Positions 8,801-34,189 of a DNA stretch of 37,908 bases are shown here, in pieces. Source of the DNA: a virus (lineage: Duplodnaviria > Caudoviricetes); the IMG/VR virus record IMGVR_UViG_3300030329_003932, positions 1-37,908 of that record; one strand, given 5' to 3'. Position numbers and translations under genes: made by a program. Numbering within the stretch: position 1 is the first letter of the stretch; the number at the start of each line of letters is the position of its first letter. The notes under the pieces are model-generated. The model saw only the letters and a list, made by a program, of their open reading frames with translations, ran no database searches and was not told the origin of the DNA.

Positions 8801-9718
8801 TGTAATAAATTGGATTCCTAATTGTGCTTCTTCCTGCCCAATTTGGACAAAATAATCTGTACCATACTTACGATAATTCTCGCCTATCCATTTTGTTAAT
8901 GACTTTGTAATTGTATCGTTGGCTTTTTTCTGTACTGACTTTGGAATAAATTTTGATACTTGCGCTCTTTCAACTAATCCATAAAATAATCCGCCAACTG
9001 ATGCAAGGCCATAAGCTACATCTGGGTCCACTCCCCGTTTGATTAGGTTTCTCAACATCATGCCAGAACCCTGTTGTTGCCAGAATGCTGTTGTCCCTAC
9101 CGCTAATCCACTTGCGCCACTTAATGGGACCGTGACAAACTCATCAGGTATTACTGGGGTAACTGCCCCAACCGCTGCTGCACCAGTCATACCTGCTGCT
9201 GCATATGGAAGTCCTGCTTTAGTTCCAGCGTACATAGAACCTACTAAACCAGCTGAAGATAACAATACATACTCTAGCCAGTTATCTGCTAGAACTGGGT
9301 CGTTCTGATTGCGCTCTTCATATTCATCATAAATCTCATTTATTTCTTCCCAGGATGGATACCCTGGAACACCTGAATAGGACATCCATGACATAGCATC
9401 TAACTCACTAGCCCTTGCAGAGCGTTTTGTTTTGAGTACTATTTTCTCAAGTGTGCCTTTAGGTGGTCTTGGTGGCCCTTGCTTTGCAGCTTCCAGTCTT
9501 TGCTTTTCAGCCATGTCAGCTTCCAGGGCCTTAAATATTCTATCATCGGTCCACCCATCCTTCCGCAGTTTATTAATATTGGATAGGTCCTTGGTCCCTG
9601 GAAATTGGTCCTCTGGGACAACTGGATTGTTCTCTCCATAATTAATAACAGAATCAACCAGGGATTCTTCCTGGGTTTTTAGATATTCAAGTATCTCGGC
9701 TCTTTTCTTAGGGTCCAA
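2867..9718 (-). CDS. Large polyvalent internal virion/ejection protein (ART-PolyVal-like domain, glycosylase-like domain, C-terminal LPD38-like region)
   Basis: 2283 aa. Motifs FKKWFGDSKVVD..PLVVYHGT..YPVYLSLKNP..DGII..VFEPNQIKS (ART-PolyVal-like); WYEDAY..IDRH..QVQAIGW; C-terminal INFNRKG..YLFANAGLQG (LPD38-like). Position matches podovirus ejection proteins. Confidence 0.75.
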   Translation of the reverse strand: MDPKKRAEILEYLKTQEESLVDSVINYGENNPVVPEDQFPGTKDLSNINKLRKDGWTDDRIFKALEADMAEKQRLEAAKQGPPRPPKGTLEKIVLKTKRSARASELDAMSWMSYSGVPGYPSWEEINEIYDEYEERNQNDPVLADNWLEYVLLSSAGLVGSMYAGTKAGLPYAAAGMTGAAAVGAVTPVIPDEFVTVPLSGASGLAVGTTAFWQQQGSGMMLRNLIKRGVDPDVAYGLASVGGLFYGLVERAQVSKFIPKSVQKKANDTITKSLTKWIGENYRKYGTDYFVQIGQEEAQLGIQFITEELAVALEGDIPQRQLEDMAAEAWETFKQTAAGLVPLQGVRASVDYAVDTQAPPKIKDVVSGLVDTQQEIETSSIVSPEEKLTVETQAQQITEDEANDFNIEYDKENDGAMEMSEDEIIATGYNIELNNIPVSRTDENGKRYYAVSLKGETDSQGNIRLTSAADRSTLLEETIEARLRRLQNSKKPEDQALIAKIENWWGSVRKKASELGLELRFDDTAEGNIELFSDAILYHKGGFTGLDEKFQAATYIPDRLADEFIANFGEMSDGTNVFDILKSDQGGVKKADSYFRDNVNEELAMREAMGQDKQRPPPTAKNPTKTKLQKKTKQMVPGENTKSPEFKKWFGDSKVVDENNQPLVVYHGTGQTFDEFNTEINRPELSFTSNPTVANEYAVSGLNATNPQMYPVYLSLKNPAVYDAKGLNWADFKVWTGYKWANIHQLAEMHKVGKEFNDDRNPGQKITFEKTDGIILKNINEVGNNLETEFLGTTYQVFEPNQIKSVFNQGTFDPNDANISHQLEPGVVEKAVGIYPDVMNTKAKKDRLRLTVARREKTPLVGRQNNNRVEFELENGGVIILGRDKTPEDWIRQVESILDQDEIELAMNWYEDAYPAFVEEFGQDEAVNYMVAWLLGNVQASPQQALSNTFLGMEQLKAALPSFKSAGTKSVAKNIKTALQGLRTEKGAGAKLYDFLDSALGKLTRTVMQDDERGLAPVAIDRHTYRDAGFVDAAIKNILGRLAIDKDRVKRLRFDSKDSSPSDTQYEYALKYMNDLTNSLNEMGYMGGNLKPHQVQAIGWTAIARMSESSEGQSIQDAIGLQKPTVAFALRFGDESPYSAMYGEAFDGLPEKEKIALTDRVVQDVVPELAEELGLKVNSVKGKGYGIWDNDPAEPNATINVRGSNQAIKALMNSIGILFQQSEVGLISKAPNLKGLGLIYSHKELSNPEMQQAVYDILREETDKDFTPGATSVTYNGMPGLMVGTNVNQSDYEIHEPSLDVAVERIRNELGIDLDLPGAITPIGSKYEATKNNWKKNNQGERYRKAIRKTHPSSLLGRLDNHYGPKVERHLEDTFAKESDKRRKSYQLEPNPDYAAEVDAAIQAKEKTKSLDISTDTIMQSAHDFLFDSMGPLVRWQKDTEEQMLGGKRLRDHVNVVLASELFVGKVSEKISDFNKKIIDKDNPDSFLRRLVDSGITTEDFNLYLHALHAQERNDAVAEINEDLEDGGSGMTNKIAETLLKKFNKKYGRVKLRKFVKEFREEVIDKTLQIRLENGLITQEDFDNMTAKYDNYVPLFRVLDETEAILDDKKWWQKKLLGIPEKIKERVGGGPQKFDVKGAESKKVKGSTRRVKNILVSAIEQHQGALLRSEKNLVNRRLLNLIEMFPDDSVVEVMGVQQKPMYDHNGEISYMQEKQQVIDSDGDYVGPERMIHVKVDGKTKRIIFKGPQGKRIAGAMLNMGASKAISVLQSFNNYLRYVNTIADPNFIFSNFIRDIQMAGFAISAEQGDTIMAQALSPKALGHAWKGVYNIVQNEDTDSEWSQLYEKLRKAGGKTGFFDYESIESKLEKLEVDLKRVESKGIGIKTAGKSVFNFIESLNEATESAVRLTLFKTLLDHGYSEEQAASGAKNVTINFNRKGQFGSFLNSAYLFANAGLQGNHRIYAILKNSKKARGAVAGIAAMGLTESILNNMASEDDDEYEKLSDWEKDNNMIFRYGSGDKYFKMRLAYGLNVFKVAGNIAGDVTWSKMKGKPLEPWRHTARLLEAMNSAFNPLGSGPWDQVLSPTIGDPLIQLSNNKAFHGGPIKPKSYYGPEKAEVEQAWSRTPNVYKNMSQWVFKAVGGKIRYNEDGGIDHAVRGPLDGFGDWSPELYEYWVDYLGGGLGKTIFRTVSTVQDAVEGDTDWAKAPFVRNFYGKFDEKSESRILYDYERNMRRDYYDNNVRLKYYNYLDSYYNKGHIDDKEYKARIKAFEKAQDEAFETKLGY

Positions 9719-22733: not shown

Positions 22734-23156
22734 TCACTCGCTCTCTAAGCGTGCAGTCTCCGAGGGAGGGCCATCATCTGTTACCACATTGTTACCATTA
22801 GCACCAGAACCAGGGCCAGACTCGGACCCGTCACTCAGAATTTTTTGGCTCGCACTCTGCCCGTTTGTACTAACTATCTGTGGGTCCAGGGATACTTTCT
22901 CAGGCAGTACAATCACACCAGTTATCTGTCTTTGTTCCACTTCCAGGGTCTGCGCTTTTAAGTCTGGGACCATCTTTGGCAGTAGAATTCTCCAGGCAGA
23001 TACCTGTCTTTGGTCAGCATCATTCATAGCTACATCAAATAGCTTTTGCACTAGTTCATTCGCCTGGGGATGTGCTTTCACCAGGTCTTTTACTGATGTC
23101 TTTGGCCTACCTTTTGGGTTACCAGATACACCTTTTAACCATTGTCCTTTATTCAT
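22734..23156 (-). CDS. terS: Terminase small subunit (putative, DUF5681-like N-terminus)
   Basis: N-terminal W.KG.SGNPKGRPK motif; first gene of the late module upstream of terL. Confidence 0.7.
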   Translation of the reverse strand: MNKGQWLKGVSGNPKGRPKTSVKDLVKAHPQANELVQKLFDVAMNDADQRQVSAWRILLPKMVPDLKAQTLEVEQRQITGVIVLPEKVSLDPQIVSTNGQSASQKILSDGSESGPGSGANGNNVVTDDGPPSETARLESE

Positions 23157-23248: not shown

Positions 23249-23277
23249 TTGCATATTAAGTGCTACGGTGCTACACT
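23249..23277 (+). promoter_or_regulatory. Sigma70-type promoter of the plus-strand operon
   Basis: TTGCAT (23249-54), 17 nt, TACACT (23272-77), with extended -10 TG; 29 nt before the ATG at 23307. Confidence 0.65.
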
Positions 23278-23295: not shown

Positions 23296-23309
23296 AGGAC
23301 AGCAAAATG
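23296..23309 (+). promoter_or_regulatory. Shared RBS element, copy 1 (AGGACAGCAAAATG)
   Basis: The same motif precedes the ATGs at 23307, 24094, 24786 and 26293. Confidence 0.75.
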
Positions 23310-24077
23310 AACTTAATCAAATACATAAAAAAGACCCTTACTTCAGCAGTTGAGAAGGTGTACTCTTTCGAGATAGTAATATCCTTTTCTGGCGGTAAAG
23401 ATAGCTGTGCGATGCTCGCATACATTTGCGATAAGTATCCAAATGCTAAGAAACATATCGTATTCGCAGATACTGGATGGGAACATGAAGGTGTTGAAGA
23501 GTGGTGTCAGGAAATAGCATCCAGGTTCGGCCAGACAGTCAATATAGTCAAGTCAGATACTAAGGATTTTTTCAGCATGGTTGAGTCCAGGGGAATGTTT
23601 CCTGGTGCGAAGTATCGCCAATGCACAAGTGACCTCAAGCGTGGTCCTATCCAGAAATGGATTAGAAATAACTGTGGTCCTAAAGTTGTCCAGGCAATTG
23701 GTATCAGGGCAGAAGAGTCAAGCGCTAGGTCCAAACAGAAACCATTAAAGAGGAACAAATCTCTCACTAATTCCAAGCGCACAGTATATGACTGGTTCCC
23801 AATATTTGACTGGACCGAGGAAGAGGTCAAACAGTACCTGGCTGACAGAAATATACCTCTTCACCCAGTATATGAATACCTACCAAGATTCAGTTGCCAG
23901 GTATGCATTTTTAACACTCCAAAAGAATTGAATGCCATCAGGCATCACAATCCAACAGCCTTCAAAAAGATTGCTGATTTGGAAAAGAAAATTGGGTTCA
24001 CAATGAATCCAAAAGGGTCAATAACTGAACTAGCAGATTCAGCAAGACCATCACGAACAATCAACATAAGTTGGTAA
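23307..24077 (+). CDS. PAPS reductase / DndC-SspD superfamily (PP-loop) protein
   Basis: SFSGGKDS PP-loop, DTGWE, RQCTSDLK, GIRAEES..R, PIFDWT, HPVY..RFSCQVC. Confidence 0.9.
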   Translation: MNLIKYIKKTLTSAVEKVYSFEIVISFSGGKDSCAMLAYICDKYPNAKKHIVFADTGWEHEGVEEWCQEIASRFGQTVNIVKSDTKDFFSMVESRGMFPGAKYRQCTSDLKRGPIQKWIRNNCGPKVVQAIGIRAEESSARSKQKPLKRNKSLTNSKRTVYDWFPIFDWTEEEVKQYLADRNIPLHPVYEYLPRFSCQVCIFNTPKELNAIRHHNPTAFKKIADLEKKIGFTMNPKGSITELADSARPSRTINISW

Positions 24078-24088
24078 AAGGACAGCAA
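24077..24088 (+). promoter_or_regulatory. Shared RBS element, copy 2 (AAAGGACAGCAA)
   Basis: Ends 5 nt upstream of the ATG at 24094. Confidence 0.75.
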
Positions 24089-24093
24089 TAACC

Positions 24094-24699
24094 ATGAATA
24101 AATTCACTCGATTCAATCATACAGTATCAGCGCAGGCCGTGCATAGGGTCATCCATCATCTAATAGATGATATTGCCTATACCTGGCTTCAGGATAACTG
24201 GAAGCAGAAGAAAGACGGCACATTTCACAAGACCGTTAACACCTCACTTAACTCATACATAGAATCAATAATTGTAGATGTTGAGAAGGAAATCTTCACA
24301 AACTATGGTAAGCAAATCAAAATCCGTGTTTGGCAAGACCATCATTCTGTACAAAGGGAAGTCAAGGATTATAAGCATCTAAAACCACATAATGACCCTT
24401 CCAAGGTAGTATTCTTTGTTGATGCAACATACAGAGTAGTAGATACATCTGGCGAGAATAGTCATTCTGTTGGCTATGTGGAGAGTAATCTATATGTCTA
24501 CAAACACGCTCCTGAGTTTGATAAGGATAGAATACCAGTACTAAAGCAAGCCTGGAAGGATACTTATCCAATAAGGCAACCTGATGAAGTGCAAGAAACA
24601 CTATTGAAACAAGCAGAGATAGAATTGCAGATTAATGCCCTCACAGAAGAAAAACGTAATATCTCCAGGGAGTTTGGATATACATATTTAGAAAAGTAA
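24094..24699 (+). CDS. Hypothetical protein (201 aa)
   Basis: ORF track; preceded by the shared RBS element. Confidence 0.75.
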   Translation: MNKFTRFNHTVSAQAVHRVIHHLIDDIAYTWLQDNWKQKKDGTFHKTVNTSLNSYIESIIVDVEKEIFTNYGKQIKIRVWQDHHSVQREVKDYKHLKPHNDPSKVVFFVDATYRVVDTSGENSHSVGYVESNLYVYKHAPEFDKDRIPVLKQAWKDTYPIRQPDEVQETLLKQAEIELQINALTEEKRNISREFGYTYLEK

Positions 24700-24702
24700 T
24701 AA

Positions 24703-24762
24703 TCCATACTGATGATGCCCCAGGTGGTCCCTGGGGCGAAACCCCAGGGTCTATGGAAACCA
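24703..24762 (+). ncRNA. Type I hammerhead ribozyme
   Basis: Stem I TCCATA/TATGGA; core CTGATGA plus one extra T; stem II GCCCCAGG/CCTGGGGC with loop TGGTC; GAAA; short stem III ACC/GGT; cleavage triplet GTC (cut after 24751); possible loop II TGGT:ACCA (24759-62) pseudoknot. Intergenic. Confidence 0.88.
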
Positions 24763-24772
24763 AAAATAAAAT

Positions 24773-24788
24773 AAAGGACAGCAAAATG
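24773..24788 (+). promoter_or_regulatory. Shared RBS element, copy 3 (AAAGGACAGCAAAATG)
   Basis: Defines the likely true start at 24786 rather than 24753. Confidence 0.75.
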
Positions 24789-25133
24789 AAAGTAAAAGAC
24801 CTAATTAATAAGCTACTGAAATTCAATCCAGAGTTGCCAGTATTTGGATTTATACCAGATGATGGTCCATATCCAATCGAGGTAGATAATTGCCTTGAGG
24901 ATAGGGTCGATATAAACCTAGTGATTGATGACGAAACTCGTAAGCCAATAACAATACAACAAATCATCGAATACTTTGAAATCGATTTAGATAACTGCTA
25001 TCTGGACCAACGTGATTTCTGCAAAGAGATATATAAATTGATTTTAAACCCAGAAAAAGAAATTAGTAACTGGGAAAGTAAAATCGAGGAGTACTACAAA
25101 GAAAGGGATGTTAATCCTTGGGGAGAAGGGTAA
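24786..25133 (+). CDS. Hypothetical acidic protein (MKVKDLINKL..., 115 aa)
   Basis: Start reassigned to the ATG following the shared RBS element; its TAA overlaps the integrase ATG (TAATG). Confidence 0.75.
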   Translation: MKVKDLINKLLKFNPELPVFGFIPDDGPYPIEVDNCLEDRVDINLVIDDETRKPITIQQIIEYFEIDLDNCYLDQRDFCKEIYKLILNPEKEISNWESKIEEYYKERDVNPWGEG

Positions 25134-26290
25134 TGCAATCAATAAAAAAACCGAATCTAACAAACCTAAAAAGGACCAGTAAGGATGGTACTTCTTACAT
25201 TACCTACATTTATAGGTATGTAGTGAAGGTATCAGGAAGGTCCATTAGAAAGTTCATCACCTTGGGTACATCCAGGGATTTGAATAGGACCCAGGTATTA
25301 GGACTTTACAAGCAGGCCCAGGTAATTGCCTGGAATGAAAAGTTAGGACTGGTACAACCTGAACAAACCAATAAGGATGAACAGCAACCTATCTTACTTT
25401 GCGAGGTATTCGATGAATGGGTGGCCCATGAAAAGAATAGGTCCAGAACCTGGTTACGGGATATTCATAATCTGAAACACTTCGTACTATTCTTTGGTAA
25501 GGAAGGCGATTGGAAAAAGAATAGGGTCACCAGTAATTGCAAGATTGACCTGGCTAAACTTAGCGCCAAAGATATCAATGCATTTTACGATGACCAATAC
25601 GAGCAAGGGTACAAAACTGAAACCGTATCTAAGCGCAACAACTACCTGAATCCACTTTATACCTGGTTGACCAATGAAGGTATCCTAAAGGATAACTACT
25701 ATGCCAGGAAGGGTAAATTAAAGGAAGTTGGGACCGATAAAACACCTTACCAGGTATTGACCAGGGACCAGGCGGAAAGCATTGTAGCAAATGCACCATC
25801 TAGTTTCTTGAAAACATTCTGGTCCATTATGCTTGATACAGCATTATCACCAATTGATGCACTTAAACTCAATAAGAAAAATGACCTGACCGTTGGTACA
25901 AATAACGATGGTGAGAAGGTTAGCTGTATCGTTACTTGCAGGAAGAAGACTGGTAAGTTCAGCGCAATAGCAATCAGTTGGGAATTAAAACAGTTAGGTG
26001 ATGATATTTGGACCCTAGAAGGCGCTAAAACTGAGATAGATGATAGTAATGACGAATTCAAGAAAGTGTGTAGGAAACTGGGCATCAAGCAAGAGAAGGG
26101 TGAGAAGTTAAGCCAGTATTGTTTCAGGCATTCTTTAGCAACTCACCTGGTAAACCAGGGATGGGAATTGGACCAGGTACAAAGGGCATTAGGCCATACA
26201 CTAGGTTCAAAAGTAACCCAAGGCTATATCGCAAATCAGATAGCCAACGAAGTAACCAAACAACAACAAGTAACCAAAAGGACGGCATAA
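25133..26290 (+). CDS. int: Tyrosine integrase with Ser at the first catalytic Arg position (IntDOT-like)
   Basis: Core-binding region (L..KDINAF..T.SKR..L), TALSPID, RKKT, YCFRHS, LGH, TQGY. Likely start ATG 25133. Confidence 0.88.
   Translation: MQSIKKPNLTNLKRTSKDGTSYITYIYRYVVKVSGRSIRKFITLGTSRDLNRTQVLGLYKQAQVIAWNEKLGLVQPEQTNKDEQQPILLCEVFDEWVAHEKNRSRTWLRDIHNLKHFVLFFGKEGDWKKNRVTSNCKIDLAKLSAKDINAFYDDQYEQGYKTETVSKRNNYLNPLYTWLTNEGILKDNYYARKGKLKEVGTDKTPYQVLTRDQAESIVANAPSSFLKTFWSIMLDTALSPIDALKLNKKNDLTVGTNNDGEKVSCIVTCRKKTGKFSAIAISWELKQLGDDIWTLEGAKTEIDDSNDEFKKVCRKLGIKQEKGEKLSQYCFRHSLATHLVNQGWELDQVQRALGHTLGSKVTQGYIANQIANEVTKQQQVTKRTA
26277..26287 (+). promoter_or_regulatory. Shared RBS element, copy 4 (AAAGGACGGCA)
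   Basis: One A>G change relative to the other copies; ends 5 nt upstream of the ATG at 26293. Confidence 0.6.
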
Positions 26291-26292
26291 CA

Positions 26293-26526
26293 ATGGTAGT
26301 AAAAGCACAAATCAAAGGTAGTAAAACAATCAGAATCTATGCACCTAGCATAGAGTCAAAGTGGAATGCATTTCATATTCATGCAAAGGCCCTGGGGAAA
26401 CAACCAGGGCATCTCTTGGGTGAGATATTTGAAAAGTATTTCACAGACAATCTAAGAGAGATATCACAAGATTGTCAAAATCATGTCAATGCAGAACTAA
26501 TACCAGAGGTTAGCAATGAACAATAA
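26293..26526 (+). CDS. Small DNA-binding protein, possibly ribbon-helix-helix (77 aa)
   Basis: True start likely MVVKAQ; KTIRIY strand followed by WNAF..AKALG and LLGEIFEKY helices. Confidence 0.55.
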   Translation: MVVKAQIKGSKTIRIYAPSIESKWNAFHIHAKALGKQPGHLLGEIFEKYFTDNLREISQDCQNHVNAELIPEVSNEQ

Positions 26527-26683
26527 AAAACCAGATAAGCATGATAGACATAGCTTAGTGAAGGGTGTATTGTATTTAATAAGGGATGTTTTTTTCTATA
26601 GAGAACTTGAGGAAATAAAGCAGTTCCTAGATGAGGTAATGGAAGACAAAAGAAATACTGGACACGATAAACATCCTTATTGA
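26516..26683 (+). CDS. Small hypothetical protein (55 aa)
   Basis: Hand-translated MNNKKPDKHDRHSLVKGVLYLIRDVFFYRELEEIKQFLDEVMEDKRNTGHDKHPY; GAGGT SD; ends before the terminator. Confidence 0.6.
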   Translation: MNNKKPDKHDRHSLVKGVLYLIRDVFFYRELEEIKQFLDEVMEDKRNTGHDKHPY

Positions 26684-26700
26684 TACAACCAGGTAAAGGA

Positions 26701-26728
26701 AAGGCTCCAGGAATGGGGCCTTTTTTTT
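26701..26728 (+). terminator. Rho-independent terminator of the plus-strand operon
   Basis: AAGGCTCCA-GGAA-TGGGGCCTT followed by a T run, at the convergence with the minus-strand operon. Confidence 0.85.
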
Positions 26729-26835
26729 ATCTCCTACCTAGCATTCCTTTATTGGACCAACCTTTACAGATACGTTTTCTTTTTAATGGATGTTTCAATG
26801 GTCCTGGACCATCACCAAACCAATCAATTCTTTTC

Positions 26836-27303
26836 TTATTCTTCTTCCTGGTTACTTTCATATTCTTTCTGTTCTTGTTCTCTTCTTTTTCTTGCTATCT
26901 CAAAAATCATTTCTACTTCAACTGGCACTTCCTTGCCCTGGGTTAAAAAGGTCCGAATGTTGCATAGAAGTCTGGTCCATTCTTCTGACTGGTCCAAATT
27001 TCCATAGGTGCATTCCAGGGTATGGGACAAAGATTCCAATTGCATCAATAATGCGACTGCATCCTGGGTCATAAGTTTTAATTGTTCATCGTACATACCC
27101 TTTATACTGTCCATTCTTTTTTTTCTTACAAGTTCTCTAGATTCCTCATCCTGGTCTGTGGTCATCATCAAGTATTCAGCACCACATTCATTACAAGCCA
27201 GGTTGCTAACAATCCCATCACCATCCATTCCGTGGTCCTCATAGGTATGGTCCCCACCCCATATGACATTTTCCCCACATCTAAAACAATATAGATTGTT
27301 CAT
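26836..27303 (-). CDS. Hypothetical protein with N-terminal Zn ribbon
   Basis: CFRC...CNEC followed by a helical region. Confidence 0.6.
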   Translation of the reverse strand: MNNLYCFRCGENVIWGGDHTYEDHGMDGDGIVSNLACNECGAEYLMMTTDQDEESRELVRKKRMDSIKGMYDEQLKLMTQDAVALLMQLESLSHTLECTYGNLDQSEEWTRLLCNIRTFLTQGKEVPVEVEMIFEIARKRREQEQKEYESNQEEE

Positions 27304-27446
27304 TTAAAATCCTTCAGTAGTTGATAGATAAAAAAGAGGACCAGTAAGGCCAGGGAAAAACATAGTAAGCCAATCCCAAATAGAAACATCCCACCTGAGA
27401 GAACACATATATCCAATAACCAGTTCGGTATCTCGTATAACATCAT
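27300..27446 (-). CDS. Small membrane protein (48 aa)
   Basis: Hand-translated MMLYEIPNWLLDICVLSGGMFLFGIGLLCFSLALLVLFFIYQLLKDFK; ATGA overlaps at both ends; AGGAG SD. Confidence 0.6.
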   Translation of the reverse strand: MMLYEIPNWLLDICVLSGGMFLFGIGLLCFSLALLVLFFIYQLLKDFK

Positions 27447-27580
27447 AATATCTTTCTCCTGGTATCGTTTCGTTTTTGGACCCTTTTATATCTCTCCCAG
27501 TCTTCATATAGAACAAGGGACAAAAGGACCAGGAACAGCATGAATACAGCGCCAATAACGAACCAGGTAAGGCTAACCAT
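27443..27580 (-). CDS. Small membrane protein (45 aa)
   Basis: Hand-translated MVSLTWFVIGAVFMLFLVLLSLVLYEDWERYKRVQKRNDTRRKIL; GAGGT SD; one TM helix plus a basic tail. Confidence 0.6.
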   Translation of the reverse strand: MVSLTWFVIGAVFMLFLVLLSLVLYEDWERYKRVQKRNDTRRKIL

Positions 27581-27983
27581 TATCTGCACCTCTTTTTTTA
27601 GCAAGCAAAGACATGGTTTCTTTATTAATCACCTTTGGGTCTTCAGCACATATCACAACGTGTGGTGTATCATCCCGTTCATTTATACAAGCATAAGTGA
27701 GTTCCAGGTATTGGATGAGGTCCATTATTCTAGAACTGATATCTTCCTCACTATACGACTTACCAGTCTTAATATAGTTCACAATACTAGAATAATGTTT
27801 TTGCATGAATACACCTAACACCTGGATAGGTTCTAATTCCAATGATGTTGCTGTGGCCTTGAAGTTTGCAAGGACATCCTCATCTCCCCTGGATTCTGTA
27901 TATTCTATTCTTTTTTGTTGTGCCTGCTTATCTCCCGTGGACCTAAATGCCGTAATTAAGGCATCGTATTCTTCTATCTTCAT
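27573..27983 (-). CDS. All-alpha NTP pyrophosphohydrolase-like (MazG superfamily / DUF1599-like) protein
   Basis: KRIEY..D.LANF..KH..I..RIMDLIQYL pattern. Confidence 0.55.
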   Translation of the reverse strand: MKIEEYDALITAFRSTGDKQAQQKRIEYTESRGDEDVLANFKATATSLELEPIQVLGVFMQKHYSSIVNYIKTGKSYSEEDISSRIMDLIQYLELTYACINERDDTPHVVICAEDPKVINKETMSLLAKKRGADNG

Positions 27984-28117
27984 TCTGACATCCTTTTATC
28001 TAGTTCAAGTTGTATTCGTTTTACTAATAAGAAGTAGAGTACCACATCCACAGCGCAATGGAATAGCACATCAAATGCCTGGGTCTGTATCACTTCAATA
28101 AAATAATAGTATGCCAT
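27980..28117 (-). CDS. Small hypothetical protein (hydrophobic)
   Basis: Likely start MAYYYFIE after a GGAGGT SD; ATGA overlap with the next gene. Confidence 0.5.
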   Translation of the reverse strand: MAYYYFIEVIQTQAFDVLFHCAVDVVLYFLLVKRIQLELDKRMSE

Positions 28118-28118
28118 G

Positions 28119-28280
28119 TTAGTACCTCCTATTTGCAATGTATTCAGTATGAAGTTCCTTGAGTCTATTGTGAGCAGGTCCACCTATTTGTATCCTACCC
28201 TCATTCAATAATTTTTTATAGTAATTGATTTTCCCTAGCGGACTCATAAACTTCTGTTTATGGGTGATTTGTTCTTTCAT
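28119..28280 (-). CDS. Small hypothetical protein
   Basis: Likely start MKEQITHKQK, coupled to the upstream stop; GGAG SD. Confidence 0.5.
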   Translation of the reverse strand: MKEQITHKQKFMSPLGKINYYKKLLNEGRIQIGGPAHNRLKELHTEYIANRRY

Positions 28281-28687
28281 TATAATATCTCCGAATATTC
28301 GTAAAACCACTTTCGGTCTACGCTACTTTGATTATTCTTTGCTCTTTTTAAAGCCAGGCTAATATTCTTTTCCCCACTATATGGATAGTAGGCAATCAGG
28401 TTATCATGCCAGAGATAAATCGCAACGTAGTCTATATGGTCATTTTTTTTATGGTCTCTCATCCGTACCTCTACAGATGATTTAGTTTTGTAAACTCCAA
28501 CGGTCTTGACCTGAATTCTTTTAAAATGATTATTCAGGAATACAACCAGGTCAGTATTAACCTGGTCCGTGACTGGAGTAAACACTTCGCAGTCCTGCCT
28601 TAGTAAATCAGCGATGATATAATGCTCACCACTAATTCCCATTGTCATCGTACTTAATTCTTTTTCTTGTTTTTGCATCTTGGGCAA
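28280..28687 (-). CDS. PD-(D/E)XK endonuclease-like protein (start uncertain)
   Basis: GEH..ADLL, VFTP..D..DLVV, RIQVKT motif of the PDDEXK_5 type. Confidence 0.7.
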   Translation of the reverse strand: MPKMQKQEKELSTMTMGISGEHYIIADLLRQDCEVFTPVTDQVNTDLVVFLNNHFKRIQVKTVGVYKTKSSVEVRMRDHKKNDHIDYVAIYLWHDNLIAYYPYSGEKNISLALKRAKNNQSSVDRKWFYEYSEIL

Positions 28688-28926
28688 ACCTTTTTATTTA
28701 GTCCATATGTTGGAAAGTCATCATAGATTTCCAGGTATGGTGGTTTGGAAAATGTCTCCCAAGCGCCCTTGCATTGAGGGCAAGCAAGCAAGGTCTTTTC
28801 ATTGATAAAATTCTTATGTCGAGCATACCTATCTGGTTTCTTTTTTTGTCTCTCTAACTGGTCCAGTACCCAATCTATGCTGTTCGAATATTTCTTTGAC
28901 ATCAATTCCTTTGTCAACGGCTTCAC
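28654..28926 (-). CDS. Zn-finger hypothetical protein (start uncertain)
   Basis: CPQC...CPRC. Confidence 0.55.
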   Translation of the reverse strand: MKPLTKELMSKKYSNSIDWVLDQLERQKKKPDRYARHKNFINEKTLLACPQCKGAWETFSKPPYLEIYDDFPTYGLNKKVCPRCKNKKKN

Positions 28927-29266
28927 TAATTAATCTCGCAAGCGGTCTGAGTGGTAGCGATAGTATAGCTTCCATTCTGTCACCACGACTGACAACACCG
29001 ACCTCAGTTTTTTCAGGCAACATCCACCGTGGTACGCGACTACGTCTTTTAGCACCCAACCAAAAACCCAAAACTTCAACATCACCTTTTTCATGGTTGG
29101 CCCCACCTCTATCTCGATTGAAACAAGGAATTGAGTAGTCCCGAAATGTGTTGACTATCTCCCTCTGTAGTTCCGCTCCCCGTTGTCGATTCCTTCGGCC
29201 CCTTTGAGCGTTCTTCAATTGCTTTGAACTCTTCGAAGGTGATGAGTTCTTCTTGTTCTTTGTCAT
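28829..29266 (-). CDS. Holliday junction resolvase-like (Hjc-type PD-(D/E)XK) protein
   Basis: RNRQRGAELQREIV..GDV..LGAKR; located after the replication initiator. Confidence 0.55.
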   Translation of the reverse strand: MTKNKKNSSPSKSSKQLKNAQRGRRNRQRGAELQREIVNTFRDYSIPCFNRDRGGANHEKGDVEVLGFWLGAKRRSRVPRWMLPEKTEVGVVSRGDRMEAILSLPLRPLARLISEAVDKGIDVKEIFEQHRLGTGPVRETKKETR

Positions 29267-30230
29267 ACCTATCTCCTGGTTCTACTTTTACTGGTTTAGG
29301 TTTTTCATGGATTAGGTCATGCCCACATTTTTCGCACATCTGTCCTAATTTCCATTTAGCGCTAAAAAATAAAGGCTCCCTAAAGTGGTTAGATTTTGTA
29401 TTGGTGCAATAAGCAATCCATTCACCACGTTCAGTCTTTCTAAACCTTTCTTGTTTTGGTTCCTGGCTGCCACCAGGTGAATTCTCTTTCTTTCTGATAA
29501 TCCAGTTAGCAACGGCCATGCGCCAGACCTTTATCTTTGCTTTCCCTGAAAACCAGTTGGTCATCTCGTAGTAGTTCCAGAACTTGGTCCCTTCTTCTTC
29601 AGCGTTGGTGATGCCTTTCTCCTTAAAGTAGTCTATTACCATCTTGATGTCTTTGGGTCGGGCAACGTGAGTCTGTTTTTTCTTCTTACTGGTACTGGTC
29701 TTAGGTTTGCTAATTTTTTTATCGTTTATTAAAGAAATATTATTATTTATAGAAGTACTATTGTTATTGGTACTATTAGTATATATATTATTATTATTAT
29801 TAGTACTATTAGTACCTTTAGTACTATTAATACCTGACCCAATAAAGTTATCATACAAACTGGCGGACTGATTCACTTCTTGATTCATTATTGATTCAGG
29901 TTCCTGGGTAACTTCCATAATAACAATAGATACGCGAGTCATTTTTGATTCACTATTGATTCGACATTGATTCATCTTGACCAGCTTATGTAGGAATCTA
30001 TTGACGGTAGCCTGGGGCCAATTTATTGATTCAGCAATATCACGCTGTGACATGATGAATTCACCAGGTTTTAATGTGACCATATAGCCATTTATAAAGT
30101 GGCAATCATCACCCATTTCATCCGCCCATCGCATGAATTGAATAAAGGCCTGGCCTTCACTAAATGGTTTCCCATTGTTCCATAATTTATGGTCCAGTAA
30201 TTCTTTTGGGATTTTGATATAGCTACCCAC
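29109..30230 (-). CDS. Replication initiator / replisome organiser
   Basis: Likely GTG start at 30230 (GSYIKIPKELLDHKLW); winged-helix-like SQRDIAESINW..V.RFL; Asn-rich linker; FWNYYE..W..WRMAVANW domain; contains iteron-like repeats. Confidence 0.75.
   Translation of the reverse strand: MGSYIKIPKELLDHKLWNNGKPFSEGQAFIQFMRWADEMGDDCHFINGYMVTLKPGEFIMSQRDIAESINWPQATVNRFLHKLVKMNQCRINSESKMTRVSIVIMEVTQEPESIMNQEVNQSASLYDNFIGSGINSTKGTNSTNNNNNIYTNSTNNNSTSINNNISLINDKKISKPKTSTSKKKKQTHVARPKDIKMVIDYFKEKGITNAEEEGTKFWNYYEMTNWFSGKAKIKVWRMAVANWIIRKKENSPGGSQEPKQERFRKTERGEWIAYCTNTKSNHFREPLFFSAKWKLGQMCEKCGHDLIHEKPKPVKVEPGDRYDKEQEELITFEEFKAIEERSKGPKESTTGSGTTEGDSQHISGLLNSLFQSR
29755..29974. repeat. Putative replication origin: iterons plus AT-rich tract inside the initiator gene
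   Basis: TGATTC(A/G) at 29869, 29881, 29892 and 29946, 29957, 29968 (11-12 nt spacing); GTACTATT x4 at 29755, 29770, 29803, 29821 in an extremely AT-rich stretch. Confidence 0.65.
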
Positions 30231-30654
30231 AGACAACTTCCTGGATGGGAATAATGACCAGTTTACTAGCGTTTTTATCACCGCCCATGACAATGTGATT
30301 CATATGGATATGTTGGGTAGCCAGGCGTTTGAGTCGCTTACGCGAAATAATCAACATAAGCGACTCTTCTTCAGGGATGCGGATATTGAATAGCCACCAA
30401 TCTGCTGTGGTGGTTTGTAGGCCACTAGGTTTTCCAAAGCATTCTATCTCGATTGCCAGGTTCCCAGTTTTATAGGCCTTGAAATCTGTCTTTACTTCGA
30501 GCCTACCAGTTAAGACTGATAAGGCTTCGACTTCCCCGTTTAAACCCCGTAAAAGGTCTATATCGAAGGATTCTGCGCTATTTTTACCGTATCGTAGCTG
30601 TCCTAATAGATTCTCTATCTGGTCTGCTGATAGGTTCAGTTTTATTTGTGGCAT
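30223..30654 (-). CDS. PD-(D/E)XK-type nuclease-like protein
   Basis: FDIDL..G..GE, EVKTD..TGN.AIE, SGL.TT.ADWW; likely start MPQIKL. Confidence 0.6.
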   Translation of the reverse strand: MPQIKLNLSADQIENLLGQLRYGKNSAESFDIDLLRGLNGEVEALSVLTGRLEVKTDFKAYKTGNLAIEIECFGKPSGLQTTTADWWLFNIRIPEEESLMLIISRKRLKRLATQHIHMNHIVMGGDKNASKLVIIPIQEVVCG

Positions 30655-30740
30655 ATGGTATGTGGTCCATGTTAAAGTTTTGGGGATGGTCCAATATATA
30701 AGAACCACCCCCTTGCAGCAGATGTCTATCGAGTTGTGGA

Positions 30741-31010
30741 TTAGGGTGTGACATCTGCCTTACTGCGGAGCATTTTCCTAAATTCTTCATGGTTGTATAT
30801 ATAGCAGTCCCAAATGCGACCTGCCATATCTGTATCGTATCCCTCAACATCAGTAAGGAAATGTTTACATTCATAGACATCGACATAGCCATTCTTTCGA
30901 ATCAGACTGTTCTGTTCGATATGGAGTGTAATCTTTGGAAAAACATCACAACAGATGCTATCGAAGACTATGTCGAATTCGGTCATCATATTAGAATGGT
31001 AAGTCATCAC
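30741..31010 (-). CDS. Hypothetical protein
   Basis: ORF track, 89 aa, in the early operon. Confidence 0.45.
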   Translation of the reverse strand: MMTYHSNMMTEFDIVFDSICCDVFPKITLHIEQNSLIRKNGYVDVYECKHFLTDVEGYDTDMAGRIWDCYIYNHEEFRKMLRSKADVTP

Positions 31011-31299
31011 CGCTTGGTGAACTTTCTCCCCCTTCCTTTTTTGATTCTGTTGTCTTTAGAACCACCTTACCATTACTGTCGTGATTCTGCCATAGGGACA
31101 CATACTGTTTTTCGCTTTCAGGAATTGCTTCATAGTCAACTACTTTCCTACCATCCACCATTTTAGAATAGGTGTTTAGTGTTCCTACAGAATATGATAC
31201 TCCCTGAAAGTCAGGGTCTGTTTGGTTAGCCTTTTTTTCATTTTTCCAGTATGTTGCCTTACGCTGTGGAACATACTTTGCTTTTGCTGTATCAACCAT
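30991..31299 (-). CDS. Putative single-stranded DNA-binding protein
   Basis: 102 aa; WKN..K..PDFQG..VSLW pattern and acidic DDLPF C-terminal tail; next to the exonuclease. Confidence 0.65.
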   Translation of the reverse strand: MVDTAKAKYVPQRKATYWKNEKKANQTDPDFQGVSYSVGTLNTYSKMVDGRKVVDYEAIPESEKQYVSLWQNHDSNGKVVLKTTESKKEGGESSPSGDDLPF

Positions 31300-32161
31300 T
31301 TTGTTTGGTATCCTTATTGTTGTTTAAAAAAAACTTTTTAGGCAACTTCGGTTTTAGTTTAGGCTGCTCGGTCTTTTGTGCCGTTTCCCATAGTTCGTAT
31401 AGCTTGACTACGCGATGCATTAAATAGTTTGCATCATCAGTAAACTCACCAGACTTATTCCGTACCACCTTAACTTTCATCTTGCCTTCTTTGACTGTAT
31501 CTCTCCATCTTCCCTGGCAATACAAAACACCGAGCGCCTGCACCTTGACATCGTAAATCTTTTCAAGCAAGATTGCATAGGCCATGCATTGTTCAAAATG
31601 TTTATCTTGCTCATTACCAGTCTTTAAATCAGCAAGCATTAAAATGTCCTGGTCTTGTCTTTTGTTATAAATATTTAGGACCAGGTCAGCAGTACCTGCA
31701 TATGGCACTTCAGGATGCCACATCATTATTTCACTATGCAGTATTGTGGGTTTATTATTATTAAACCATTCCTGGTATGACCATAACATTTTCTGTACTA
31801 ATTGTATAGCTTCCCATTTATTTGGGTATATCAACTTCCAACGTATATCCGAATATGTATCCAACATTAACTCTATATCATCAACTGTGACTTCCTTCCC
31901 TTCGTTCATCTCGTCAACACATTGATGTGCTATGGTCCCAATGATTGCAGTTACGGGACCATCTATATCTGCCCATCTACCCTTATCCTTATACCAGTTA
32001 CTAAGTCCAGGTGAGGATTCAACACTTGCTACATTGGTCCAGGAAGGTTTTAATGGATTCTCAACATTCTTATAAACATCAAGTGCTGTTGGACCATAGA
32101 ATCTTCCACCGCCAGTTGCATATCTCCTGGCCTGGATACCTTTAGTAAAGTCTATTTTCAT
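31292..32161 (-). CDS. PD-(D/E)XK exonuclease (recombination exonuclease, RecB/Cas4-like fold)
   Basis: PSWT.V, GTIAH, YAGTADL, DLKTG, QCMAYA motifs. Confidence 0.8.
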   Translation of the reverse strand: MKIDFTKGIQARRYATGGGRFYGPTALDVYKNVENPLKPSWTNVASVESSPGLSNWYKDKGRWADIDGPVTAIIGTIAHQCVDEMNEGKEVTVDDIELMLDTYSDIRWKLIYPNKWEAIQLVQKMLWSYQEWFNNNKPTILHSEIMMWHPEVPYAGTADLVLNIYNKRQDQDILMLADLKTGNEQDKHFEQCMAYAILLEKIYDVKVQALGVLYCQGRWRDTVKEGKMKVKVVRNKSGEFTDDANYLMHRVVKLYELWETAQKTEQPKLKPKLPKKFFLNNNKDTKQNG

Positions 32162-32164
32162 AAA

Positions 32165-32341
32165 TTATCTCCCATTGCTTTTTAGCCATTCTTCAAAGTC
32201 TGACTTTCTTATTCTAATTATTTGATTACTTATTTTATGAGATGGAATTTCACCTGTAGTGACTTTGAGATGTATTAGCTGATAGCTAACCCCCAACATC
32301 TCCGCAATTTGCTTTATACTATAAAATAAAGGCTTATTCAT
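32165..32341 (-). CDS. Excisionase/Cro-like HTH protein (58 aa)
   Basis: Hand-translated MNKPLFYSIKQIAEMLGVSYQLIHLKVTTGEIPSHKISNQKLIRIRKSDFEEWLKSNGR (HTH_17/Xis pattern); divergent from the repressor. Confidence 0.8.
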   Translation of the reverse strand: MNKPLFYSIKQIAEMLGVSYQLIHLKVTTGEIPSHKISNQIIRIRKSDFEEWLKSNGR

Positions 32342-32581
32342 GTTGTGTACCCTTTGTTATGTGGTGTACTGATACTAACTATGCTATACAGTAGTATTTC
32401 AATACTAAATATAACATACTATAATATATTAATATAATGCAAGATAATAATGTAATTATACAGTATAATATCATTTGCTATGGTATATTATAGTATAGTA
32501 ATATACGATAAGGTAATTAATATAGTTTTGGATATGGGTCTAGGGTAATATCTTAAACATTAACATAAAGTGAGGAAATAA
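32342..32581. promoter_or_regulatory. Divergent lysis/lysogeny switch region with candidate operators
   Basis: Very AT-rich; perfect palindrome ATTATAC-A-GTATAAT (32455-69); inverted repeat GTATATTA-N8-TAATATAC (32483-32506). Confidence 0.6.
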
Positions 32582-33373
32582 ATGAACCAACTTAGTAATA
32601 CTGCTAGGATGTTTAAGATGCTGAGAATGGAGTTAGGCATAACACAAAGAGAATTAGCTGATAAGCTAGATATAAGTCCTGGGAGCGTATATAAATATGA
32701 GAATACGCTAATGGAACCAGGCCATAGAGTTATTGAGAAAGTCTATGAGTTGGCAAAAAGCAACAACGTAACATTATCGGATGCTGAAACAGTAGGGACT
32801 GGTAAAGGAACCAGACCATCTGATAACGACCCAAAAGGAGAACAATCAATGGACACATCATATATGGGCCTATTGAAAGATAAAGTAGATTCTCAATCAG
32901 TTGAGATATCTAAACTAAAAGCAGCATTGAATGAGAAACAAGCAGAGTCCACTCATTGGGACGAACTTGAATATCATTTTATCTGCGATGTAAGGATAAT
33001 AAGGAATGGTTTTACACTAGGTCGATGTATCGAATCAGTTAGTGATATATCATCTATAGTGAAATACACGGGATATAGCCAAAAAGAAGTGGAAAAATTC
33101 TTTTCGGTTGGTATAGAATATCCCAGATTGGATGACCATCCAGTAAATGGAATAATATGTGACAAGTCTTTAAAGACACTTCAGTCACATACTAGGTCTT
33201 TACCTTACATATTCGATAGTCTAAAACACATGGTAGGCAATCATTATGTCCCAGTACCTATTACATATAAACATAAGACTATAGACAGAATGGTACATAC
33301 AATCACATTCAATAAGATTGATTGGCGAAATATGATAGTCTACTCCAAGGTTCAATTTTTGGACCTAAACTAA
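32582..33373 (+). CDS. XRE-family repressor with coiled coil and PAS-like C-terminal domain
   Basis: LRMELGITQRELADKLDISPGSVYKYE HTH; C-terminal YTGYSQKEV motif; no S24 peptidase motif seen; GAGG SD. Confidence 0.8.
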   Translation: MNQLSNTARMFKMLRMELGITQRELADKLDISPGSVYKYENTLMEPGHRVIEKVYELAKSNNVTLSDAETVGTGKGTRPSDNDPKGEQSMDTSYMGLLKDKVDSQSVEISKLKAALNEKQAESTHWDELEYHFICDVRIIRNGFTLGRCIESVSDISSIVKYTGYSQKEVEKFFSVGIEYPRLDDHPVNGIICDKSLKTLQSHTRSLPYIFDSLKHMVGNHYVPVPITYKHKTIDRMVHTITFNKIDWRNMIVYSKVQFLDLN

Positions 33374-33376
33374 AAT

Positions 33377-33400
33377 AAAATGGTAACAATATGGTAACAG
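33377..33400 (+). repeat. attP arm-type site pair, left
   Basis: AAAATGGTAACAATATGGTAACAG, identical to 33626-33649; contains ATGGTAACA twice. Confidence 0.75.
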
Positions 33401-33441
33401 TACATATTTGAGACTAGAAAATCGCATCCCTTCTACGATAA

Positions 33442-33467
33442 AAAAGCCCCAGTCATTTGGGGCTTTT
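33442..33467. terminator. Bidirectional intrinsic terminator between the repressor and the tRNA fragment
   Basis: AAAAGCCCCA-GTCATT-TGGGGCTTTT. Confidence 0.8.
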
Positions 33468-33485
33468 CTCGTCAATAGATTGATG

Positions 33486-33545
33486 CGGAGAGAGTGGGAT
33501 TCGAACCCACGTTACGCTATTAACGCAAACACGCTTTCCAAGCGT
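33486..33545 (-). other. attP core: 3' portion of tRNA-Ser(GGA)
   Basis: Minus strand reads ACGC-TTGGAAA-GCGT (anticodon GGA), long variable arm, GTGGGTTCGAATCCCAC T-arm, TCTCTCC-G. No D arm and no CCA. Confidence 0.85.
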
Positions 33546-33625
33546 ATTAACTCTCCTCGGTAAGGTGTGCTTACCGTCAGTAAAGCTTGTTAAATGATTA
33601 TATACCATACTACACAATAATACAC

Positions 33626-33649
33626 AAAATGGTAACAATATGGTAACAG
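33626..33649 (+). repeat. attP arm-type site pair, right
   Basis: Perfect 24-bp direct repeat of 33377-33400. Confidence 0.75.
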
Positions 33650-33660
33650 AGTTTAATAGC

Positions 33661-33702
33661 AAAAAGGCCCCGAAAGGACAGCAAAATCCAGGGACGGGGC
33701 CT
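33661..33702 (-). terminator. Lysis-operon terminator with a 22-nt loop antisense to the shared RBS element (candidate sRNA)
   Basis: Minus strand AGGCCCCG-TCCCTGGATTTTGCTGTCCTTT-CGGGGCCT-TTTT, starting right after the endolysin stop. Confidence 0.8.
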
Positions 33703-33703
33703 A

Positions 33704-34189
33704 TTAAGTGGTAAGCGAACCTACCATATCTCTAAACTTGTCAATGGTCCCAGCACCTTTTTCAGTATTATATACCTTCTTCCACATTCTTGCAGCTTCA
33801 TCGATATTCTTACTCATAGGTAATGGTGACCGCCAATATTTCAATCGGCAATGTACGATACCACTAGCCATATTGACCAATAGAATTTTATCCCAGGTAT
33901 CAGCGTTACCACTAACCCATACATCAGGTTGGGTCATGGTGACTTCAGCGCATTTAAACGCTAATTTGGACCGATACTTGATATAATTCTCACATTGAGA
34001 AACTGCTGTATTTGGTTCTACTTGCCAGAACGACCTGGCAGGCCCAGTACCTAATTGTTTAATATACTCATACCTGGATTCAACGTGTCCAGTCCAGTAC
34101 ACTAAATCAACAGCATCTTTACTGGCATATTTAGAGCCAAGACCGTTTAAGGTATTCTTAATTAAGGTCCTTATTTGTTGGTGATTCAT
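33704..34189 (-). CDS. Putative endolysin (lysozyme-like fold)
   Basis: HVES..Y..QLG.GPARSFWQVEP..WKKVYNT..GAG pattern; last gene of a cassette with TM proteins. Confidence 0.65.
   Translation of the reverse strand: MNHQQIRTLIKNTLNGLGSKYASKDAVDLVYWTGHVESRYEYIKQLGTGPARSFWQVEPNTAVSQCENYIKYRSKLAFKCAEVTMTQPDVWVSGNADTWDKILLVNMASGIVHCRLKYWRSPLPMSKNIDEAARMWKKVYNTEKGAGTIDKFRDMVGSLTT

Follow-up and report, generated by a model that had tools for sequence, protein, structure and literature searches.

A terminator loop complementary to a ribosome-binding-site tag shared by genes of a phage integrase operon: a candidate trans-acting antisense control

The integrase operon and the terminator at the lysis end

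The stretch of DNA analyzed here (the window) is the complete virus record IMGVR_UViG_3300030329_003932 (Caudoviricetes; 37,908 bases). Its gene content reads as that of a temperate tailed phage, with minus-strand terminase, portal, and capsid genes, repressor-like and cro-like genes, a replication block, and an integrase. In the plus-strand integrase operon, four genes carry a common extended ribosome-binding-site (RBS) element, hereafter the tag, and the loop of a terminator hairpin that follows the last minus-strand late gene is complementary to it. Loop and tag change jointly across lineages of related phages, suggesting that the end of the late transcript may act on the integrase operon as an antisense RNA.

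The operon contains a PAPS-reductase-domain gene, two genes of unknown function, the integrase gene, and a gene for a 77-residue ribbon-helix-helix (RHH)-like protein (Table 1). The RHH-like call is based on weak fold matches (Z up to 4.7) and atlas neighbors, and sequence searches of solved structures gave no significant match for this protein. At the other locus, the modeled product of the last late-strand gene has lysozyme-like proteins as its top structural rows (Z 6.5, root mean square deviation 3.5 to 3.8, 110 to 131 aligned); no Pfam family was found for it, and Foldseek and sequence searches of solved structures were not significant. Given a lysozyme-like last gene, as judged from the model, “lysis transcript” is a reasonable label for the RNA that ends here.

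On the lysis strand, the terminator hairpin has a predicted folding energy of −21.4 kcal/mol (z −4.33), with a U run on its 3' side. The features of an intrinsic terminator were found in all nine records that could be compared (see below): the stems pair despite differing in sequence, with a weaker U run in the record G003. The unusually large 22-nucleotide (nt) loop reported in the preliminary description is present but is not fully open, as a 4-bp inner stem (GGAU/GUCC) is predicted within it, leaving 6 apical bases free. Opening the 15-mer in the loop would cost 6.0 kcal/mol and opening the targets 0.8 to 3.9 kcal/mol, compared with duplex energies of −17 to −22 kcal/mol. Rfam holds no family that matches the hairpin, either that of the window or those at three unrelated loci, and a covariance model of the terminators matched only the window at a good E value, with six unrelated hairpins at E values of 0.13 to 0.73.

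Table 1. Positions of the features discussed, in window coordinates
Feature	Positions	Strand	Remarks
Predicted integrase-operon promoter	23249..23277	+	TTGCAT-17-TACACT; conserved by eye in most of 11 loci; missed by a strict scan
RBS tag 1	23296..23308	+	before PAPS-reductase-domain gene (23307-24077)
Integrase operon	23307-26526	+	directed away from the small terminase gene (terS)
RBS tag 2	24077..24088	+	before gene of unknown function (24094-24699)
Type I hammerhead-like ribozyme	24704..24756	+	core pattern; predicted cleavage after 24751, 21 nt 5' of tag 3
RBS tag 3	24773..24787	+	15-nt match, covers first two start-codon bases; before gene 24786-25133
Tyrosine integrase	25133..26290	+	Pfam PF00589, E 1.1e-11; PHROG 1; start overlaps preceding stop
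RBS tag 4 (G variant)	26277..26287	+	before RHH-like gene (26293-26526)
Terminator-like hairpin closing integrase operon	26700..26728	+	predicted fold, −19.6 kcal/mol
Likely phage attachment site (attP)	33379..33650	−	tRNA-Ser 3' part (33486-33556) between two arm-type repeat pairs (33379-33400, 33628-33650)
Terminator after lysin-like gene	33660..33702	−	stem 33666-33672/33695-33701; 22-nt loop 33673-33694 with anti-RBS sequence
Lysozyme-fold protein, likely endolysin	33704..34189	−	last late-strand gene; model pLDDT 84.5
UUCG hairpin	33708..33727	−	over last lysin-like codons, just 5' of terminator

Complementarity between the loop and the tags

The motif GGACRGCA occurs five times in the window, always on the plus strand, while shuffled sequences contained 1.26 copies on average and none of 100 shuffles reached five. 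All five copies of the element lie where the preliminary description had placed them, four at the gene starts of the operon and one in the terminator loop, and the contiguous pairing it gave between the minus-strand loop and tags 1 to 4 (13, 12, 15, and 11 nt, respectively) was confirmed, the 11-nt match including one G:U pair. When the 43 curated gene starts are ranked by their pairing with the loop, those of the four tagged genes take the top four places. Since only these 4 of the 43 carry the tag, all of them in one operon, it does not represent a general Shine-Dalgarno (SD) context in this genome. A search of 185,579 GTDB genomes with terminase and integrase queries returned no relative and thus did not identify the host or its SD habits.

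The integrase start itself is untagged in the window. It has a purine-rich, SD-like stretch of its own and pairs weakly with the loop (−12.4 kcal/mol, versus −18.4 to −21.8 kcal/mol for the tagged starts). The TAATG overlap of the upstream stop codon and the integrase start is present (25131-25135), and it may couple translation of the integrase to that of the gene behind tag 3. The proposal that the loop blocks translation of the integrase operon is supported in part: complementarity and joint change agree with it, but in the window the integrase would be reached through such coupling and not by a direct hit.

Joint change of loop and tag in related phages

About twenty relatives were recovered with integrase, lysin, RHH, and terminase sequences as queries, and a search anchored on a PD-(D/E)XK gene added no further family member. 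Some relatives come from TARA-named records, which suggests a marine origin. Both the operon and the terminator are present in nine records, which represent seven lineages and formed the co-variation set; G002 and G004 were excluded since their sequences end before the terminator. Mean pairwise identity among lineages is 0.42 for the 3' arm of the terminator and 0.69 for the loop.

Across these nine records, the relatives keep the loop complement and alter it together with the tag. The tags of L088 carry an A-to-G change that is met by a C in the loop, and those of L087 and L089 carry an A-to-G change at a different position, again with a matched loop. The tags of L082, L083, L084, and L092 contain an additional A, with a corresponding extra U in the loops of L082 and G003; this one-base insertion in the loop was predicted from the tags before the loop was read. 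The inner stem of the loop shifts in step, from GGAU/GUCC to GAAU/GUUC in G003. When the loop of each lineage was paired with the leaders of every lineage, excluding L089 and G003 as near-duplicates of L087 and L082, a lineage's own loop ranked first in five of seven cases, second for L090, and fourth for L099, a result equaled by 2 of 5,040 permutations that ignore relatedness. Orthologous RHH genes are tagged in 13 of 15 records, each with the variant of its own genome; descent alone therefore does not explain the match. In the family, 4 of 14 integrase starts are directly tagged, which supports the integrase as a member of the regulon.

The placement of the loop relative to the lysin gene is also conserved. 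It lies 27 to 30 nt past the lysin stop codon in seven of nine records, but its distance to the arm repeats of the attachment (att) site varies from 15 to 123 nt. In eight of nine records, the predicted fold of the lysis strand is more stable than that of the opposite strand, in one of them by 0.2 kcal/mol only. Among 79 loci with lysin homologs, the terminator together with the motif was found only in the 4 family members.

From these comparisons of sequences, we consider it somewhat more probable than a coin toss that the terminator of the late transcript doubles as a trans-acting antisense RNA that represses the four tagged genes of the integrase operon. Several results weigh against this interpretation. 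The seven lineages are kin, a relationship that the permutations leave out of account. L099 ranks only fourth of seven and has mixed tags, and the loop of G001 pairs over 7 to 8 bases only, with pair-breaking changes in all five of its leaders. The preliminary description had also pointed to the single variant base of the tag forming a G:U pair, an argument that turned out not to discriminate: tag variants show no bias toward G:U-compatible changes (10 of 119 wobble-compatible versus 4 of 46 pair-breaking opportunities, with 28 of 46 sites kept by a filter that removed four G001 leaders, each breaking two pairs). In the window, 17 of 9,470 genome windows, which lie at nine non-start sites, pair with the loop at least as strongly as the best RBS when accessibility is ignored, so energy alone is no proof of targeting. 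In addition, the loop sequence of L088 occurs in hairpins in 38 of 67 pattern matches from unrelated phages, most of them from one group, where it stands upstream of genes in antisense orientation, and none of the 16 whole records that were searched has more than one tag-like start. Because the same loop exists in unrelated phages without RBS partners, it may derive from an older hairpin with a different role, recruited here.

A widespread phage hairpin with a fixed 16-base loop and unrelated stems was seen in L109, L110, L134, L135, L149, L150, L171, L175, and others. It sits upstream of recombination or endonuclease-like genes, matches no Rfam family, and is not accompanied by a set of RBS partners.

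The likely attachment site and a protein-binding alternative

The likely attP lies next to the terminator. Its tRNA-Ser part scores 31.3 bits with the Rfam tRNA model. The window and L099 share the anticodon GGA, while L087, L088, L090, L082, and G001 have GCT, suggesting that the lineages use different serine tRNA genes as bacterial attachment sites (attB). A third, inverted pair of arm-type repeats is located at 22735-22799, inside the 3' part of terS, where it adjoins an inverted repeat of core-like type, similar to the anticodon arm of the tRNA-Ser except that the central 7 bases differ. The arm-type repeat in terS is in each case the att repeat of the same lineage, occurring as a pair in the window, L001, L087, L089, L082, and G001 and singly in L090 and L099; none was found in the terS region of L088. 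The flanks of the terS-site core match at 9 to 12 of 12 positions in five of seven records. Judging from these repeats, the terS site is possibly a second integrase site, serving dimer resolution or a block on late transcription.

At three sites about 10 kb apart, the arm-type repeats thus change in concert from lineage to lineage, which counts against the antisense interpretation since it indicates that a protein is able to produce such co-variation in this phage. The foremost alternative is that the tag is the site of a lineage-specific phage protein, either a DNA operator or the target of an RNA-binding repressor such as the RHH-like protein, and that the terminator holds one more such site, close to attP. 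The operon does encode an RHH-like protein, the wobble comparison gave no signature of RNA pairing, and the identical loop sequence in unrelated phages that lack partners would fit a protein site as well. However, a protein site does not readily account for a fifth copy that stands in the opposite sense inside an RNA structure whose inner stem shifts in step with it, nor for the fixed distance of this copy from the lysin stop rather than from the att arms. A more natural operator is also at hand: in most relatives, the promoter of the integrase operon has a palindrome, TGTAGCA-n-TGCTACA, over its −10 box, the window copy (23255-23277) being nearer to a direct repeat, and it is a candidate operator for the RHH-like protein. 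By comparison with known RHH operators, the palindrome would be a more likely site than the tag. On balance, we regard a protein site as unlikely, if the strongest of the competing explanations.

Gene cassettes and hammerhead ribozymes

In the relatives (L082-L103, L185-L205, L294, and L295), the stretch from promoter to integrase holds different genes in different phages. These variable genes look like swappable cassettes, each often headed by a hammerhead ribozyme and a tag. The hammerhead-like element of the window has the type I arrangement, with the core CUGANGA/GAAA/UH and three stems, of which stem I is open. Among 21 family loci scanned, 14 contain a total of 21 hammerhead sites, one to four per relative, directly upstream of a leader; the stems vary in sequence and pairing is kept. 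The canonical fold is the minimum-energy fold in the relative L001 but not in the window, whose copy has a competing fold and may be slow. Rfam gave no hammerhead match in the window and only sub-threshold matches (E 0.04 to 0.17) for the hammerheads of L090.

Clustered hammerheads near prophage integrases have been described before (PMC3088659). In the available text of that report, they likewise flank single variable genes by the integrase, with the presumed role of dividing a long transcript into mRNAs of gene length, whereas neither a shared RBS tag nor an antisense partner is described there.

Cassettes have been swapped in the operon and its hammerhead and leader units are repeated, a mosaic that raises the question of whether the match of loop and tags is a by-product. 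In that case, cassette shuffling would homogenize the RBS repeats, and the loop would be without function, either a generic hairpin that was inherited or a copy made by recombination. The loop family is indeed widespread, and mismatches are tolerated in G001 and L099. Yet only about 12 identical bases link sites that lie 7 to 10 kb apart, and at least three separate matched changes, one of them an indel, would have to arise by such a route. Furthermore, at nine unrelated loci that share the hammerhead, the SD sequences are ordinary and the tag is absent, indicating that the tag is specific to this phage family. We therefore consider a functionless by-product very improbable.

A proposed model for antisense control by the lysis transcript

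For the favored antisense interpretation, the predicted folds suggest the following sequence of events. The free apical bases of the loop would first pair with the spacer part of a tag, after which the inner 4-bp stem would open, giving an 11- to 15-bp duplex that covers the SD sequence and spacer and, for two genes, would reach part of the start codon. The hammerheads, by cleaving the transcript, would yield leaders free of structure. Pairing would block translation of the tagged genes once late transcription reaches its end; the integrase would be lowered via coupling in the window and directly in those lineages in which it is tagged, and late expression would thereby lock in lysis.

In the 520 nt that precede the terminator, no conserved sigma-70-like promoter was found (six of eight records had none, and two had candidates at unrelated positions), for which reason the active species would be the 3' end of the mRNA or a stable 3' fragment of about 70 nt comprising the UUCG hairpin and the terminator. 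A comparable UUCG-type hairpin is predicted in L088 and L087, and this hairpin is a possible 5' boundary of such a fragment.

Another possibility is that the pairing is real but involves a small RNA with a promoter of its own that is produced in the lysogen, where it would silence the accessory and RHH genes much as C4 silences the antirepressor of phage P1. The same data on joint change of loop and tag would be expected, the two-hairpin unit resembles a small RNA, and in the window the tag is found at the RHH gene but not at the integrase, a distribution that would suit a stable lysogen if the RHH-like protein were a directionality factor. Against it stands the lack in those 520 nt of a conserved promoter of sigma-70-like type, the type searched for. 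We rate a lysogen-made small RNA as rather improbable, less so than a functionless by-product and more so than a protein site.

If the antisense interpretation is true, the terminator is a multi-target translational repressor that couples the end of late transcription to the shut-off of integration genes, amounting to an RNA-only commitment step in the lysis-lysogeny decision. The matched loop-tag pairs of the different lineages would then form a natural set of partly orthogonal translational switches.

Comparison with known systems

The C4 RNA of phages P1 and P7 (PMC5320573, PMC12197685) offers the closest parallel. As far as the available text of these reports goes, C4 is also a trans-acting phage RNA with a loop complementary to RBSs and a role in lysis-lysogeny genes, and its loop and target change together between related phages, the pattern computed here from sequence. 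C4 is, however, an independent RNA that measures about 77 nt, comprises three stem-loops, is cut by RNase P, acts through two loops (a' and b'), and favors lysogeny (PMC5320573, PMC12197685), whereas the window element is a single loop inside a terminator after a lysis gene, has at least four RBS targets 7 to 10 kb away, and is predicted to favor lysis. The Rfam models of C4 had no match in the window, either at the gathering score or at an E value below 5. The fold comprises two hairpins, unlike the three stem-loops of C4, and there is one complementary stretch only, unlike the paired a'/b' loops. Consequently, the C4-like logic suggested in the preliminary description holds for RBS complementarity and joint change and fails for structure; by analogy, the element would function like the C4 of P1 and is not a C4 member.

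A second parallel is the start-associated sequence (SAS) of cluster K mycobacteriophages (PMC3203893, PMC11373665), which in the available text of those reports is an extended, asymmetric, phage-specific RBS motif before non-structural genes. The tag is likewise an asymmetric repeat over the RBSs of non-structural genes and is conserved beyond the SD sequence. Each K1 phage is described as having one opposite-sense SAS copy (PMC3203893), located away from gene starts, and the role of SAS was called unknown in 2024 in the available text of PMC11373665. We found that the opposite-sense copy forms the loop of a long hairpin in Anaya (L301, position 34874), CrimD (L304, 6839), and Adephagia (L329, 1486-1495; record positions 58685-58694). 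In Adephagia, this hairpin is flanked by genes 92 and 93, within the interval that the available text of one of these reports gives for the start of late transcription. No opposite-sense SAS hairpin copy was found in the right-end stretches examined of TM4 and Pixie. The systems differ in that sequence and host are unrelated and that the K1 hairpin is near the start of the late transcript, not in a terminator. Moreover, the tag lacks the 13-bp cluster K consensus and the upstream inverted repeats of the extended SAS (ESAS) as given in the available text, so that the likeness is one of analogy only.

Finally, DicF of the Qin prophage and other operon-derived small RNAs (PMC12197685) are similarly untranslated, terminator-like products of phage operons that act in trans by base pairing. 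In the available text of that source DicF targets host mRNAs and is stabilized by Hfq, whereas the predicted targets of the window element are the phage's own genes with a shared motif. A search of mostly open-access literature, confined to articles without their supplements, found no description of terminator-loop control of shared RBS tags. Comparative support for the feature is good, and the window element may be viewed as a putative new variant within trans-acting phage antisense control.

More tentatively, and with doubt prevailing, we speculate that the element belongs to a general class of phage switches in which early genes share one extended RBS tag and are shut off jointly by a single anti-tag loop in a late transcript. 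In the window, the loop would be that of the late terminator, which would fire only after about 27 kb of transcription and so might serve as a timer; hammerheads would free the leaders, and the integrase-type site in terS could feed back on the late operon, making a double-negative switch. Such a class would also explain the SAS of K1 phages. Already if the antisense interpretation of the window element is true, SAS would gain a concrete, testable partner, as the anti-SAS hairpin of Anaya, CrimD, and Adephagia can be mutated in a phage growing on Mycobacterium smegmatis.

Other features of the phage genome

The window contains no GATC site (256 expected) and no CCGGG site, and CCWGG (197 copies) and GGWCC (130 copies) are frequent. 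This pattern of site avoidance suggests restriction-modification pressure from the host, and it is not the same in the relatives. At 2867-9718, the window encodes a protein of 2,283 residues that contains an ART-PolyVal (ADP-ribosyltransferase) and an LPD38 domain, as is typical of polyvalent phage proteins.

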